DNA of 64,000 nt from Candidatus Omnitrophota bacterium. Its GTDB lineage: Bacteria; Omnitrophota; Gorgyraeia; Gygaellales; Profunditerraquicolaceae. A program made the position numbers and the translations under genes. Under the pieces are notes generated by a model. The model made no database searches. It saw nothing but the letters and a program-made list of their open reading frames with translations, and was not told the origin of the DNA. Below are positions 6,648-55,789 of the stretch, piece after piece (the first letter of the stretch is position 1; every line of letters begins with the position of its first letter). The DNA is taken from the NCBI GenBank assembly GCA_041650835.1, contig JBAZKL010000004.1, positions 294,900 to 358,899 of the forward strand, read 5' to 3'.

Positions 6648-9600
6648 TTAAAGGAACTCTTGTGACTCTAAACTGTCTAAATAGATCAAAAGCCCTGTAA
6701 CCTTTAAATGCGGATAGATATCTTTGACAATAGAGATATATTCCGTCATTTGTTCATTGTATTCATCATGCGCCTCAGCTGAACTCTTATAATCGATGAT
6801 CCAGGCGTCTTGTGCTGTTACCACCAGGCGGTCAAGCCTCCTGGTTACGCCAAAACGGTCAACGATCTCTTTCTCCTGATACACCTGACCCTCCCGCACG
6901 TTAAAATAACGCTCATAGCGCTCATCCGCTAATAACGCTCCCACAACGCCGGAATAGGAAGCTACGTCGGTAAAAGCGGGAAAACGCTTCCTCGCTTTCA
7001 AGAGAGCGCCGTTCAGCAGCACCTGTTTTTCGGCGCCGGCGCAGTTGCCGATACAGGAAAGGATATAATGAAGCACTTCACCCCGGAAGATCTCGGCCCG
7101 GGAAGCGAGAGTATGCTCGTCAATGAACTCATCCTTTAAAAGATGGATCCAGTCTTTATATGCCGCAGGAAGGATCTCCCGCGCAGGCGGCAGCTGCGGC
7201 AGGGAAGATCCTCGCGTATCGCCGGCTGATCCATATTCGCGGTCGTTTTCCGGTAAAAGAAGGCCGGCAATATTCAAACCCGTTTCTCCTTGAGGAGAGA
7301 TAAAAATGTATAGCTCATCCTTCGGGCGGGTCGTGGCAACATAGATACTGTTAAGCTCGTCGATGAACGCCTTGACGTATTCATTGCGGTAGATACGGGC
7401 CAGCGACGGAGAAAAATCCGCGTACCGTTTCTTCAGATACAACAATTTCAGGCCCTCTGACGCCTCAACGATGACCTCTTGTTCTGCTTTTACGTTCATT
7501 TCAAGGAAAGGCAGGATAACTACGGGAAATTCCAACCCTTTCGATTTATGGATCGTCAGTATCTTTATTGAATCGGTATGGGCGACATTAACGTATAAAT
7601 CATCCAGAGGTGCTTGAGCAAAGAAATCCAGGAATACCTGGATACTCGGTTTCTTGTCTTCTGCCTCTTTGATCAATTCTAAGAAGCGCATAAAGAAGCC
7701 CTGATAATCCGGAAACTCCTCCAAAACGGCGAAGCCGCGGTAAATACTGACGACTAATTCATAGAGCGGGACAAACCCCACACTTTTAAAGAAATCTTCG
7801 AAAAGACGGTCCCAGGCCTCAGGGAAACGCCCTTTGAATTCCCGGTAGAGATACGAGCACCCGGATGAGCTCGTGTGCAGATTGAAAATGAAATCCTGGA
7901 TTTCTTCCGATGAGATCCCCGATGCCCGGGAAAAGATCTCTCCCAGTATAAACGAAGCAAACGATAAATTGTCAATGGGGGAATTCAGGAACATAAGAAA
8001 ACTGACCAACTCTTTGATATAGGCGTTAGCCTTGATATTAAGCGTTTTCTCCGATTCGACGGGGATATTCTCTTCCAGGAGCCAGGAGGTCAAAAGCTCG
8101 ACCTGTTCATTTTTTCTTACGATAAAAGCGATATCCCGCAGCGGGACCCCTCTGGCGGCTAACTTCCTGACAAGGCCGAGCAGCGCCGGCTTTAAAGATC
8201 CCTCGCGCTCTTGCTTAGACCTATATTCAATAAACTCCGTTTTTACAAAACCACCGGGTTTATTCTTGAGGGACTCCTGAAAGGACGACAGGAAGATACC
8301 GGTAATTTCTTCGGCGTCGTTATCGTCTAACGCTACAGCTCCTTTTTTCTCAACTGCCAACTCCTTCAGGAACCGCCTGAGGTTGTCTTGAGAAAAAAGC
8401 ATATTGTTAAAAGCAACGATCTCCCGGCGGCTGCGGTAATTAGTCGTCAGCGACTCTTCGATCAAATTAAAATCCCTCAGGCGTTCTTTCTGGGAATCGA
8501 TCAATGACACTTCCCCTCCCCGGAAACGGTAGATCGCCTGTTTTTTATCTCCCACATAAAACAGCGAGCCTCCGCAGGAGAGCGCCTCCTGGATCATGAT
8601 AAAAAGGTTTTCCCATTGCAGGCGGCTGGTATCCTGGAATTCATCAAGCAAATAATGTTTGAAGCGGGTAGCCAGGCGGTAGTAAAGTTCGGGCAGGCCG
8701 AGATTTTTCTCATCAAAAAGGCTGCGCGCCTCTTTATTCAGGGCTTCCAGGAACAATATATCGTCCTTACTGGAGGCTTGCTTTAAATCTTCGAGCACGC
8801 GCTTAAAAATAGCGACGTAATAATTAAGCATGAAAACGGATTCCAACTCACAGAGCCCGCTCAGGCTGTCCTTAAGCCTGCGCCAGAGCAGGCGCGGCTC
8901 ATCCGGGATATCATGCCCCTTATTAACAGGGAGCTCTTCGCGTTTAAAGAAATCAGAAACTTTTTCAATCGAAAAATGATCATCCCGGCGTTCCAAGAAT
9001 GCGCTCAAACTATTCTTAAACGAGGCATGCGTTCCCTCGGGCAGGCGCTCTAAGAGCTTACGCAACAGCTTGACGATCTCTTCTTTCTTGGAAAACACCT
9101 GCTCCGCGGTCGCGCTTGAAAGAAAGAAGCTTCCCGCGTAACGGTTACTCTTTGAAAATAACGCGGTAATGATCCCTAAAATATACTGTTTCGGGAACCA
9201 CCCCGCCTTGTTTTCTATATAAATATATTGGGTAAGGAAATTACTGAAAAGTTCAAGGACCTGCGCATCCGTTGAAGCGCGGTCGATCAACTTATCAAGG
9301 CTGAAGGCGAGATATTCACGGTAATCTTTTTCTGTCTTAAACCTCGCGGAAAGGTCAAGCTTGAAAGCGCACCCGCTGAGGATAGCGTTAATAAAGCTGT
9401 CAATGGTCTGGACCTGGAAGAAATTATAGTTTCGCAGCAGCGCATCCATGATCAAATGCGCTTTTTGGCGCGCGCTTGCCTCATCAATATGCAACGCGCC
9501 CAGTAATAAAGCTTTTTCTTGAGGATGAGTAAAGACATCCAACGCGATCCTTTTTAAAAGTTCCAGGATCCGCTCTTTCATTTCAAGAGCGGCCTTATTG

Positions 9601-52670: not shown

Positions 52671-53111
52671 TTATCTCGGTTTCCAGCCCCACGGATCAGC
52701 GCTTTGCCGCAGCTCCTTCTCTTTCGTTTCAATAATACTCTTTAAATCAGGCGATAACGATTTCAACAGCTCTTTTTCTTCCTTTTTCAACTCGGAAAAA
52801 ACCCGGTGCACCTGTTTATAAAATCCAGTACCGCATTCATCTGCCGTAAGCTTCTCTCCAGGTCCCGGCGCAAAAGGAGAATCTTCAGGAATAGCTCCGG
52901 GGGCGAACATAAGCTGCGCCTGCAACATCACCGCGTCTTTAAGTTTAATTTCGCCTCTCTCAGCTGCCGCCTGGACCATATCATACATGCTGGAATATTT
53001 CTCTTCAACCGCGGGTATATCGACAGAAACACCCGTTGAAGAAGACTCTGAGTAACAAATACCGGATAGAGCCAAGATAAAGAATACAATCTCGCAAAAT
53101 GTAATTCGCAT
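52671..53111 (-). CDS. Small secreted protein of unknown function (146 aa from the Met with an SD sequence)
   Basis: Signal peptide MRITFCEIVFFILALSGICYS. AAAAGAGGG lies 4 nt upstream of the ATG at 53111. The ORF track's upstream extension to 53210 runs through the structured element. Confidence 0.6.
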   Translation of the reverse strand: MRITFCEIVFFILALSGICYSESSSTGVSVDIPAVEEKYSSMYDMVQAAAERGEIKLKDAVMLQAQLMFAPGAIPEDSPFAPGPGEKLTADECGTGFYKQVHRVFSELKKEEKELLKSLSPDLKSIIETKEKELRQSADPWGWKPR

Positions 53112-53126
53112 AAACCCTCTTTTATT

Positions 53127-53378
53127 GATCAACTTAATGAACCTGTTGCTTTTCTCGCTCAGGTTGATTTTCCGCCACAAAACATGGCGGACGGCAAAGA
53201 TCTTTCGCATTTCGGTGGCTGCTGAACTCGTCGCATTTGCTCTATCAAATGCTCCTTAAACAACATCGCCATCCCAAGATTGCCCAGCTCTCGCTGGGCC
53301 TTGGGATTCCCTCAATGCTCAAGCTGCTTTGCCTAAAATCAACATTCGCTCGAAAACCAGCAGGTTCATTTAAACCAA
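53127..53378 (-). ncRNA. Candidate structured RNA, copy 1. It is a ~250-nt multi-helix element that forms the 5' leader of the secreted-protein gene.
   Basis: The reverse complement aligns over about 255 nt (~75-80% identity) with 54401-54660. It has the hairpins GCCCAG-CGAGAG-CTGGGC, GCATTTG...CAAATGC and TCCGCC-ATGTTTTGT-GGCGGA. A long-range helix GGCAAAG/CTTTGCC is also present. All of these covary with the other copy. Confidence 0.55.
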
Positions 53379-53386
53379 AACACTTC

Positions 53387-54126
53387 TTATTTCTTAACGT
53401 TCTTTTTCTTTAAATCTTCCTGCATTATTATTTCATTTTCTAAAACTTCTACCCCTCTAAGATAATTATCCTTCTTAGCCAATTTCAATAATTCTTTTAG
53501 AAAATAAATATAATCTTTACCCTTTTCTTTTCTCAACTCATTAGAATATAAATTAAACTTTGCACATACATTCAATGCTGACCCTACTTTTTCTTCCTGC
53601 GTTTTAATAATTTGCTCCTCTTTTTTATCAGGAATCTCCAAATATAAACAAAATGCCTTATACCCATAACTAAAGGCTTTTCCCCATATACCATAAACGG
53701 CATAACGTTCAGCCCTTGATTGATAATATCCTGCCTGGCGGAACATTGATTCTAATCTTACTTCTTGCTCCGATGCTTTTATTTCATTATCAAGAATTTC
53801 TTCAATTTTCTTAACATCTTGCCCTTGATTAATTTTACCAACAAAATTTTGGTCTATGTCAACATTTTGTATATCTTCACTAACACCTACTTTCGTATTT
53901 AATATAATAATATCTCTAATTGTTGAACCCTTGGGCTTCTTAATATTAGAAGAATTGTTTTCGGTGTTTTCTTGTTTTTGTCTATTCCCTGAGAAAAATC
54001 GTCCGGCCCCTGCTCGCTCTTTGCAGCAGTATTATCAGTAAAATCGGTATTTTTCATATCAACCTTAAAACCCGTATCTTGATCCAACGATAAATTCCCC
54101 TTAATTCTTGAATTTTCTGCTTTCAA
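53387..54126 (-). pseudogene. Disrupted gene of unknown function in the AT-rich insert (the two ORFs 54126-53899 and 54031-53387 lie in frames offset by 1)
   Basis: The 119-aa ORF frame stays open upstream to a stop at 54032-54034 and contains no start codon there. The upstream 75-aa ORF (TTG start) ends at 53899. Joining them with a single-base shift near the A/T homopolymers at 53960-54010 would give a protein of roughly 240 aa. Confidence 0.4.
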
Positions 54127-54147
54127 ATCAAACCCAGTTGTTTTATT

Positions 54148-54276
54148 TTACACTTCTCTCTTACTAATTATCCCAAAGGAAACCCACCAAACAATAATTT
54201 GAATTACTAAAAGCAAGCTAAATATTCGAAACCAAATAGGTCCTTCAAACAATGCCTTAAATAAATCTGACCACAT
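54148..54276 (-). CDS. 42-aa hydrophobic peptide (single TM helix)
   Basis: MWSDLFKALFEGPIWFRIFSLLLVIQIIVWWVSFGIISKREV. A strong SD sequence AAAGAGG lies 6 nt upstream of the ATG. It is below the 60-aa ORF cutoff, so it is absent from the ORF track. Confidence 0.5.
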   Translation of the reverse strand: MWSDLFKALFEGPIWFRIFSLLLVIQIIVWWVSFGIISKREV

Positions 54277-54400
54277 CTTATACCTCTTTAATCCCTACTA
54301 TTGAGTTAATTCTTATTAAACGTTGCGGTTATTATTGTAGCGCATATTTTCCTACATCACCAAAATTTATTTAACCCCAACCGCTCACAAGTAACTTGAG

Positions 54401-54660
54401 TTGGTTTAAAAATGAATCTGACGGTTTTTCGAGCGCATCACGATTTTAGCCAATGGAGCTTTGGCATTGAGGGTATCCCAGGTCAGCCGAGAGGCTGACA
54501 ATTCTGGGACGGCGATGCTGTTTGAGTCCTATTTGCTAGAGCAAATAGGACGAGTTCAGCAGCCGCCGAAATGCCAAAGATCATTGGCGTGCCGCCTAAT
54601 TATAAATATAGCGCGGCAAAATCGTGCTTAAGCGAGAAAAACCGCCAGATTCATTAGATC
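54401..54660 (+). ncRNA. Candidate structured RNA, copy 2 (paralogue of 53127-53378 in inverted orientation)
   Basis: Hairpins GTCAGC-CGAGAG-GCTGAC, CTATTTGC-TAGA-GCAAATAG and GCCGC-(17 nt)-GCGGC. Long-range helix GCCAATGG/TCATTGGC. It abuts the ruvB stop codon. Confidence 0.5.
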
Positions 54661-54664
54661 TAAG

Positions 54665-55789
54665 CTAAAACAGCTCTTCTTGTTTCTCTTTATTGAATTT
54701 TATTCCGAAATGTTCGAACGCCAGCTTCGTGGCTACCCTTCCGCGGGAGGTGCGCTTTAAATAGCCGGCCTTGAGCAGGTACGGCTCGACGGTATCGACA
54801 ATGGTGTCGACTTCTTCATTGAGGCTTGCCGCCAAGGATTCAGCGCCTACCGGCCCGCCGTCAAAAGATTCCAGGATCAGCCTTAAAACCCGGCGGTCCA
54901 GGTCATCTAAGCCCGCTTTATCGATACCCAATTCGTCAAGGGTCTTTGCGGCGACAACCTGGTCGATCTTGGCGATATTGGAGACCTGCGCGTAATCCCT
55001 GATGCGACGCAGGAGCCGGTTGGCGATACGGGGAGTTCCCCGCGCGCGCCTGCCGATCTCGCATGCCGCCTCATCATCGATCTCAATACTTAAGATCTTG
55101 GCGGAACGCCGTACCACCTCTGCTAAATCCTCGACCCCGTAGAAATCAAGATGGTAAAATATGCCGAAGCGGCTGCGCAGCGGCGCGGATAATAAGCCTG
55201 AACGCGTGGTTGCCCCGACAAGGGTAAAAGGCTTGAGCCTGAACTTGATCGTCTTGGCATACGGCCCTTTATCAATAACGAAATCGATCTGAAAATCCTC
55301 CATCGCCGGATACAGGAATTCCTCCACCACTTTGGAAAGCCGGTGTATCTCATCTATAAAAAGGATGTCGCCTTTTTCTAAATTAGTCAAAATACCGATA
55401 AGGTCTCCGGCGCGTTCAATAGCGGGCCCTGAGGTCGCGGTGACCTTGGAATGCATTTCATGGGCGATGATATGCGCTAAACAGGTCTTGCCCAGGCCGG
55501 GCGGCCCGGAAAATAACGTATGCTCGAGAGGCTCTTTACGCTGTTTGGCGGCAGTCAAGCAGACTTTCAGGTTGTTGACCAGGTCTTTTTGCCCGATGAA
55601 TTCCGAGAGCTTATTGGGGCGAAGCGAAAGGTTCAGGACTACATCCTCTTCAGTCTCCTGCGCCTCATTCAACGGGAACGGTAATGGATCCTCAGCGCGC
55701 GCGGGGAGGGATGCGGCATCGGTATAATCATACTCCGATCCGTCGAAGGAACTTTCACTGCTAATTTTGCGCTTCTTCTGTCCTGCCAT
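54665..55789 (-). CDS. ruvB: Holliday junction branch-migration ATPase RuvB, with an acidic N-terminal extension
   Basis: 374 aa. Walker A is GPPGLGKT. The sensor and arginine-finger regions are present. The C-terminal winged helix is present. No ruvA is adjacent. Confidence 0.9.
   Translation of the reverse strand: MAGQKKRKISSESSFDGSEYDYTDAASLPARAEDPLPFPLNEAQETEEDVVLNLSLRPNKLSEFIGQKDLVNNLKVCLTAAKQRKEPLEHTLFSGPPGLGKTCLAHIIAHEMHSKVTATSGPAIERAGDLIGILTNLEKGDILFIDEIHRLSKVVEEFLYPAMEDFQIDFVIDKGPYAKTIKFRLKPFTLVGATTRSGLLSAPLRSRFGIFYHLDFYGVEDLAEVVRRSAKILSIEIDDEAACEIGRRARGTPRIANRLLRRIRDYAQVSNIAKIDQVVAAKTLDELGIDKAGLDDLDRRVLRLILESFDGGPVGAESLAASLNEEVDTIVDTVEPYLLKAGYLKRTSRGRVATKLAFEHFGIKFNKEKQEELF

Follow-up and report, generated by a model that had tools for sequence, protein, structure and literature searches.

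Among the described systems that come closest to the locus treated here are the minimal mobile elements of Neisseria (Correia and dRS3-NIME regions), the exchange of which is thought to take place via homologous recombination of the flanks, and composites that are flanked by miniature inverted-repeat transposable elements (MITEs), such as the integron mobilization units and the pairs of 439-bp MITEs that surround class 1 integrons in Acinetobacter, an arrangement comparable to the inverted insertion sequences (IS) of Tn5 and Tn10. Structured intergenic repeats are known as well, for example ERIC/IRU, BIME/REP, RUP and BOX. The locus in question lies in a 64-kb window (the whole stretch of DNA that was analysed) of a Candidatus Omnitrophota metagenome-assembled genome (MAG), as given by the source name of the protein P0001 that is encoded in it, and consists of a segment of about 1 kb (53379-54400) between two inverted copies of a structured repeat, in the following termed element A. 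It is likely that this segment is horizontally acquired DNA with a single gene that has since died, and that it resides in a slot of structured repeats between ruvB and the gene of a 146-aa secreted protein.

The segment contains three open reading frames (ORFs) on the minus strand that had been listed in a preliminary description made from the sequence alone, and they are present exactly as listed: a 42-aa ORF at 54148-54276 with an ATG start and GGGATTAAAGAGGTATAAG immediately 5' of it, a 75-aa ORF at 53899-54126 with a TTG start, and a 119-aa ORF at 53387-53746 that corresponds to the annotated protein P0001. The 42-aa and the 75-aa ORF share one frame, in which a TAA at 54148-54150 is the sole separator. 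The frame of the 119-aa ORF remains open for 95 codons above its own ATG until a stop at 54032-54034, as had been described, and the resulting open frame of 214 codons (53390-54031) overlaps the end of the frame of the 75-aa ORF; in a three-frame translation, this overlap is found within GGAATAGACAAAAACAAGAAAACACCGAAAAC at about 53961-53995, where there are A4-A5 runs. With the long open frame as query, an intact homologue of 299 aa from an unrelated metagenome was found (P0002; 60% identity over 90% of the query), and the three joined fragments align with it end-to-end at 62% identity. The N-terminus of P0002 (MWSDLFKAIF...) is the beginning of the 42-aa peptide, and where the window has ...KREV*NKTTGF, P0002 has ...KEEQTNKTTGF. 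The gene thus carries two independent lesions, one being a nonsense codon of the substitution type (the in-frame TAA after codon 42), the other being the frameshift, the zone of which falls in a low-confidence linker of P0002 (residues 91-116, pLDDT < 50 in the structure model described below). A second homologue, P0003, has the C-terminal domain in common with the gene product.

To judge from these alignments, the three ORFs are fragments of one gene for a protein of about 297 aa, and the degenerate, frameshifted gene of the preliminary description is well recognized in fragments that are colinear with intact P0002 across both lesions. It had also been proposed that a single-base shift would fuse the two longer ORFs to a protein of about 240 aa: the frame change indeed lies at about 53961-53995, whereas the size has to be corrected to about 297 aa because the transmembrane (TM) peptide belongs to the protein. 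The 75-aa TTG ORF corresponds to the frame of the second fragment, from the first start codon to an out-of-frame stop. As the 42-aa peptide is colinear with an intact homologue that reads through the position of the TAA, it is, at the level of sequence, the severed N-terminal membrane anchor and not a toxin, and its Shine-Dalgarno sequence is that of the ancestral gene.

The GC content of the segment is 31.7%, that of the window 48.1%, and in a run of 630 sliding 1022-nt windows (mean 0.480, standard deviation (sd) 0.031) the segment includes the lowest-GC kilobase of the 64 kb, with a minimum of 0.317 at 53401, which is about 5 sd under the window mean; the sharp drop in base composition between the element copies that had been noted earlier is hence the GC minimum of the whole window. 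The GC content at third codon positions (GC3) is 0.23-0.32 in the coding fragments as compared to 0.46-0.62 across seven neighbouring genes. As GC and GC3 deviate strongly from those of the neighbours, and as the genes of the homologues are equally AT-rich (all about 29-30% GC, with GC-richer flanks), a foreign origin of the gene is indicated.

The comparison with sister slots, which were located via ruvB orthologues and a scan for element A, further supports the acquisition. Read from ruvB, with the orientation of A in brackets, the window (RuvB 100%) has ruvB, A(-), the dead cargo gene, A(+), and the 146-aa gene. In L068 (RuvB 93%), ruvB is followed by a GC-rich structured repeat B, a single A(+), a 137-aa gene, DUF2905, spoIID, and queA, and this slot is cargo-free, so that the genes on the queA side and on the ruvB side are contiguous there with no cargo gene between them, as had been asked of related genomes. 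In L043 (RuvB 94%), the order is ruvB, B, A(-), an unrelated gene of 245 aa (28-33% GC, no Pfam domain), an A-type terminal stem that encloses an inverted B, and a homologue of the 146-aa gene, whereas in L069 (RuvB 82%) ruvB and A(-) are followed by a third, again unrelated AT-rich ORF that extends to the contig end. The idea of a horizontally acquired cassette therefore fits well with the atypical GC content and with a syntenic slot that is cargo-free in one genome and carries unrelated cargo in two others. The nucleotide similarity of the window to L043 is 95% in ruvB and 94% in A and ends exactly at the outer tip of A, at 54410. The A copy on the ruvB side has its orthologue in the copy of L043 (95%), and the A copy on the side of the 146-aa gene has its orthologues in the only copy of L068 (92%) and in the L067 copy (89%); compared with each other, the two copies of the window are only 84% alike. 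Because the arms are orthologous across genomes, the inverted pair must be old, and at least one replacement of the cargo that it encloses must have taken place.

It can thus be proposed that an AT-rich segment with a single gene entered a repeat-built slot beside a resident copy of A, that the inverted arms of A delimit the exchangeable segment, and that the gene was later inactivated by the nonsense codon after codon 42 and by the 1-nt indel in the linker and would now be decaying. The cargo may have been exchanged by recombination, with the A arms serving as portable homology for incoming DNA, and this mechanism is favoured because it explains orthologous arms, non-orthologous cargo, and the lack of mobility genes.

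That inverted copies of a structured element bracket the segment holds true in detail. The arms are 78% complementary at 53191-53304 / 54477-54590 and 82% complementary at 53302-53356 / 54426-54480, both elements fold much better than shuffled sequences (z = -8 to -16), and these two are the only A copies within the window. Both turn the same end to the cargo: copy 2 has its 5' end towards the cargo and its 3' end 6 nt from the stop codon of ruvB, and in copy 1, 12 nt separate the pseudogene stop from the 5' end, while 20 nt lie between the 3' end and the likely start of the 146-aa gene at 53111. A covariance model (R1) was built from the two window copies, and the GTDB species genomes were scanned for a 19-base core motif; 55 stretches were found, about 45 of which were confirmed as A by the covariance model, almost all of them in Omnitrophota MAGs or single-amplified genomes, with several copies per genome (about 5 in the scan) and many of them at contig ends. 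The element is about 225-250 nt long and multi-branched, with a three-way junction and the invariant core …GAUUUUAGCCAAUGGAGCUU…GGCGAUGCUG…GAGUUCAGCAGCCACCGAAAUGC…. In 33 full-length copies, 93% of the paired cells pair normally, compared to 34-45% when the partners are slid by 1-3 columns, and compensatory double changes occur in 35 of 72 pairs, values that are matched in none of 500 shuffles. The closing stem, a GNRA-capped hairpin and one further hairpin covary freely, whereas two central helices and the junction are nearly invariant. The terminal stem changes its sequence between copies, as for instance in L061, where GCCCCCTGTCTTTTAGG... pairs with ...CCTAAAGACAGGGG, and likewise in L022 and L027. 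Element A therefore is a real conserved structure and not a classical MITE, because its stems covary and its terminal stem is not a fixed terminal inverted repeat; it acts as RNA or as single-stranded DNA and represents an undescribed family. In Rfam 15, there was no match at the gathering threshold in the 64 kb, with two chance-level matches at E <= 10 in 52900-54800, and none on the repeats of L043; the 33 copies show no consistent target-site duplication, a recurrent transposase neighbour was not found, the core pattern was not found on viral contigs, and nothing relevant on structured RNAs or repeats of Omnitrophota was found in the literature. Identities as retron msr/msd, as guide RNA of IS200/605 or IS110, as attC or as REPIN were considered for A and rejected, as there is no partner gene and the architecture differs.

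The model strand of A has 84 G-U pairs and 39 A-C pairs. In 20 of 25 cases, a convergent gene ends with its stop codon towards the 3' end of A on this strand, at a distance of 0-12 nt in 13 of them, and these convergent genes include ruvB, an SPFH-like and a purM-like gene. This suggests that the opposite strand of A is co-transcribed as a 3' extension of the convergent gene, which conflicts with the strand indicated by the G-U pairs.

The peptide and the element next to it could also be taken for a type I toxin-antitoxin locus, as was done in the preliminary description, with a 42-aa membrane toxin that is repressed by the RNA of element A or by an antisense transcript. The peptide does contain a single TM helix and is preceded by a good Shine-Dalgarno sequence, and 130 nt upstream the other strand has a structured element of very high stability, but the peptide matches residues 1-43 of a 299-aa homologue that continues past the position of the TAA, some further homologues also begin with a TM segment fused to the remainder, and it thus represents residues 1-42 of a protein of about 297 aa. 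Element A in turn occurs near unrelated genes at about 45 loci that have neither cargo gene nor peptide, while it is absent at the homologue loci L002-L004 and L007-L011 (cmsearch), and no Rfam antitoxin or toxin-leader family was matched, so that a toxin-antitoxin function is extremely unlikely and the lead had to be abandoned. One could also suspect that the cell has an undamaged gene and that the lesions are A/T homopolymer errors of sequencing or assembly, since the frameshift lies among A4-A5 runs and the source is a metagenome-assembled genome; the ENA contig L005 and the Logan contig L006, however, match the window at 100% identity throughout the region, and because there are two independent lesions, one of the substitution type, and an identical sequence in three assemblies (the NCBI MAG, L005, and L006), such an artefact is very improbable. 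A gene that still functions in split or recoded form, by programmed -1/+1 frameshifting together with stop read-through or by separate TM and soluble products, would agree with the downstream frame being open for 214 codons, with a C-terminal domain that is still about 66% identical to P0002, and with the potential of A-rich tracts to be slippery. This, too, is hard to believe, as the heptamer X XXY YYZ is absent at the frame junction, TAA is a normal stop here, as for example in ruvB, and two separate recoding events would be required for a gene whose intact homologues have no need for recoding.

Two other explanations give more weight to element A itself. In the one, A and the adjacent AT-rich gene would work together as a two-part module, for instance in defence or regulation with A as the structured RNA partner, and the window would contain a broken member of such a system. 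At 6 or more loci, AT-rich ORFan genes that differ from locus to locus start divergently at a distance of 10-135 nt from one and the same A end, and A has an invariant core with covarying peripheral helices like functional RNAs. The partner genes, however, are mutually unrelated, ordinary genes are found there in about 70% of the A copies, and at its other end A in most cases directly adjoins a housekeeping gene at the stop codon, which better fits an intergenic repeat, and such a module is thus unlikely. In the other, which is the more novel alternative to recombination via the arms, an enzyme not yet described would recognize the folded A and catalyse a site-specific exchange. Element A, perhaps together with the repeats B and C, would then be the part that is recognized in a so far undescribed system of Omnitrophota for the exchange of cassettes, which inserts and replaces single ORFan genes at the outer end of A. 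Such a site would resemble attC or tRNA att sites in its function while being unrelated to them in structure, and the window would show a cassette that was captured between two folded RNA or single-stranded DNA sites and has decayed since; this idea can be considered only with some reserve, as a rather unlikely one.

Acquisition of a single gene, now dead, in a slot of structured repeats is thus preferred, and several points have to be held against it. An AT-rich flank is present at only about 30% of the A copies, the other approximately 70% having ordinary flanks, and for this reason A is not simply a cargo carrier or a cassette end. Homologues of the gene exist at L002, L007, L008, L009 and L011 with no A nearby, and the empty slot of L068 could be due to a secondary loss rather than reflect the ancestral state. 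No mobility gene, target-site duplication or direct repeat was found around the unit, and the mechanism of the acquisition is accordingly a proposed one. Finally, the three assemblies possibly derive from the same reads, with a sequencing error nevertheless being very unlikely.

The cargo protein belongs to a family that is very rare, mostly found in Omnitrophota, and new to domain databases. In a profile search of 5.8 billion proteins 5 clusters were found, a set of 1.84 billion contained 11 representatives, and the two members that have source names are both from Omnitrophota, while searches in Pfam, PDB sequences, PADLOC and PHROG gave no match and no relative was found on viral contigs. 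An AlphaFold (AF2) model of P0002 that was based on a 13-sequence alignment (pLDDT 82.8, pTM 0.75) has a TM helix at residues 15-40, a short beta-solenoid at 48-86 and 119-148 with a repeated xGF(K/D)(V/I) motif, a linker that is disordered, and a TPR-like domain of six helices at 156-298. With this model, Foldseek found only weak TPR, 14-3-3 and generic helical-repeat neighbours, all above E = 0.01. The model suggests a membrane-tethered binding or scaffold protein. The contexts of the homologues are unrelated and different at each locus: at L002, the gene of P0003 is downstream of dnaG, rpoD and a gene for a coiled-coil protein and has a truncated tRNA-like stub next to it; at L007, the homologue comes after a HEPN-like gene, at L008 after the end of a trpE/pabB-like gene, and at L011 it adjoins DUF3024, UPF0158 and SEC-C genes. 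The stub of L002 (9511-9548) is a tRNA-like 5' half (GGGCCCATAGCTCAGCGGCAGAGCAGGTGACTCATAA, with a CAT anticodon loop) directly upstream of the AT-rich region of P0003 that was not called by ARAGORN, and it may be the remnant of an attachment site. The genes of P0004 and P0005 have a conserved non-coding leader of about 150 nt upstream (…GGAGAGAATGCTTAAAAA…; L007:590-734, L008:235-405), and as this leader is conserved despite different upstream genes, gene and leader move together.

Elsewhere, element A is also found beside other AT-rich genes. In L053, L036, L056 and L051, the same A end has the start of a distinct AT-rich ORFan gene (30-36% GC) at a distance of 10-60 nt, in divergent orientation, with GC-rich repeats of the B and C types on the far side; none of these ORFan genes has a Pfam domain, and five other cargo proteins had no match in Pfam, PADLOC, PHROGs or PDB sequences. 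The contig of P0002, L001, has a similar bracket, ...CAGATTCATT, the gene, and AATGCACCTG..., with a covariance-model match that is weak (E = 0.13). Among the fetched loci, there was no further inverted A pair that resembles the one of the window; one tandem direct pair, the only one seen, has its copies 66 nt apart (L025:84-309 and 376-602).

In these genomes, several families of structured repeats, nested and mutually inverted, make up mosaic-like intergenic regions. Repeat B, about 190 nt long, has the closing stem GGTAACGG…CTTGGTTTGTTTTTCGCAGGG / CCCTGCTCAAAACTAAACCAAGCCACCCGTTAGC and a fold z of -4.7 and often adjoins A, and the A-type stem around an inverted B in L043 suggests modular or nested elements. 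Repeat C (…TTTTGCTGGAGCGTGCRTTAGAAA…GGCATTTCG…) is found on the far side of several cargo genes, and repeat D consists of GTGACCTGTGAC-like units between A and the next gene. At one variable position of A, there can be an extra hairpin of about 95 nt (L043:6460-6554, L068:9565-9655, and the copy of L016), which L043 and L068 have in common though their A copies are oppositely oriented. Between an SPFH-like and a purD-like gene, L029:5995-6483 and L065:2505-3006 have A in opposite orientation and at the opposite spacer end, with a 35-nt stub of the A stem retained at the old position in L029; on sequence comparison, this difference is evidence for an inversion or re-insertion of repeats.

Coordinates of the gene fragments (as predicted from the alignment with P0002), elements, borders and further repeats; positions without a locus name refer to the window
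Feature	Position	Strand	Remarks
ruvB	54665..55789	-	left border of the slot, conserved; Pfam domains on the identical L005 gene
Element A copy 2, ruvB side	54407..54659	+ (model R1 strand)	cmsearch 297.9 bits; fold -128.8 kcal/mol, z = -12
AT-rich spacer, 130 nt	54277..54406	-	from element A to the ancestral start codon; carries Shine-Dalgarno AAAGAGGT
Pseudogene fragment 1	54148..54276	-	codons 1-42, N-terminal TM anchor; aligns to P0002 residues 1-43
Pseudogene fragment 2	53961..54147	-	frame of fragment 1; first beta-solenoid rungs (NKTTGFDLKAENSRIKGNLSLDQDTGFKVDMKNTDF...), until the frameshift zone
Frameshift zone	53961..53995	-	1-nt indel in GGAATAGACAAAAACAAGAAAACACCGAAAAC; P0002 alignment changes frame here
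Pseudogene fragment 3	53387..53995	-	shifted frame; second beta-solenoid half and TPR-like C-terminal domain; contains the 119-aa ORF
Element A copy 1, 146-aa gene side	53132..53374	-	cmsearch 278.6 bits
146-aa secreted-protein gene	52671..53111	-	right border of the slot, conserved; called as 146 aa in L005
Repeat B	L068:9126-9345; L043:6041-6260, 7600-7770 (inverted); L029:5995-6205; L001:1-60		
Repeats C/D	L001:1140-1270; L051 (beyond the cargo gene); L070:9360-9470; L067:100-215; L065:2760-3000	reverse (L051)	

The genes around the segment are trpS, scpA, ruvB, then the segment, the 146-aa secreted-protein gene, DUF2905, spoIID and queA, all on the minus strand. A 179-aa ORF listed at 52671-53210 on this strand extends into copy 1 of element A and has probably been drawn too long; the gene is likely to start with the ATG at 53111 (MRITFCEIVFFILALSGICYS), which gives a signal-peptide-like N-terminus. 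Homologues of the 146-aa protein come after element A in L043, L067 and L068, and a metagenome scan with this neighbour gave one short contig only, while an exact look-up of the DUF2905 protein gave no match. By Pfam domains, there is no integrase, transposase or recombinase gene within 10 kb on either side of the segment, and no direct repeat or target-site duplication was found at the borders of the unit. In the spacer at 54277-54406 no sigma-70-like site was found, and a scan for promoters and terminators gave no enrichment.

Taken alone, the insert is an ordinary dead ORFan gene, and a false type I toxin-antitoxin lead is thereby removed. Of greater interest are the variable slot and the family of structured repeats around it, a family which has no Rfam entry, is present in several copies per Omnitrophota genome, and is a candidate for a new RNA or DNA structural family. 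One end of element A marks precisely the place where unrelated AT-rich single genes are gained or lost from one sister genome to the next, and this makes the locus an entry point to the question of how accessory genes are acquired and discarded with no recognisable mobility genes involved, in a little-studied and largely uncultured phylum.

When the locus is compared with the systems mentioned at the beginning, it is like the minimal mobile elements of Neisseria in that a fixed slot has a variable single accessory gene or none in close relatives, with no mobility gene and with small structured repeats around it. It differs in belonging to another phylum, in that A is unrelated to the neisserial repeats, much larger (about 245 nt), and multi-branched with an invariant core, and in that the breakpoint is here at the tip of the repeat and not in the flanking genes. 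Like in the MITE-flanked units, the cargo is enclosed by a pair of copies of one non-coding repeat that is a few hundred bp long and has terminal inverted repeats, and A is a dispersed multi-copy element at which assemblies break; unlike in these units, A has no target-site duplication, its terminal stem and internal hairpins covary so that there is no fixed transposase site, and the flanking copies of A are orthologous between genomes while the cargo is different. With integron cassettes, the locus shares a promoter-poor single gene beside a repeat that is conserved in structure and not in sequence, and a variable content in a fixed place. The attC sites, however, are simple imperfect hairpins of 57-141 nt with R and L boxes that form direct arrays by intI, whereas A, which was inspected by eye for the attC R-box consensus, is about 245 nt long, multi-branched and present as an inverted pair, with no array and no integrase within 10 kb. 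The likeness to type I toxin-antitoxin loci such as hok/sok and tisB/istR is that of a small hydrophobic ORF with a Shine-Dalgarno sequence beside a structured RNA-like element, the difference being that the ORF is the truncation product of a 297-aa gene and that there is no conserved pairing of peptide and RNA. Like ERIC/IRU, BIME/REP, RUP and BOX, element A is intergenic and multi-copy, shows compensatory changes, is often found just after a stop codon, and forms mosaics, but it is longer than these repeats, has a three-way junction and a GNRA-capped hairpin, and occurs, at a low copy number of about 5 per genome in the scan, almost only in Omnitrophota.

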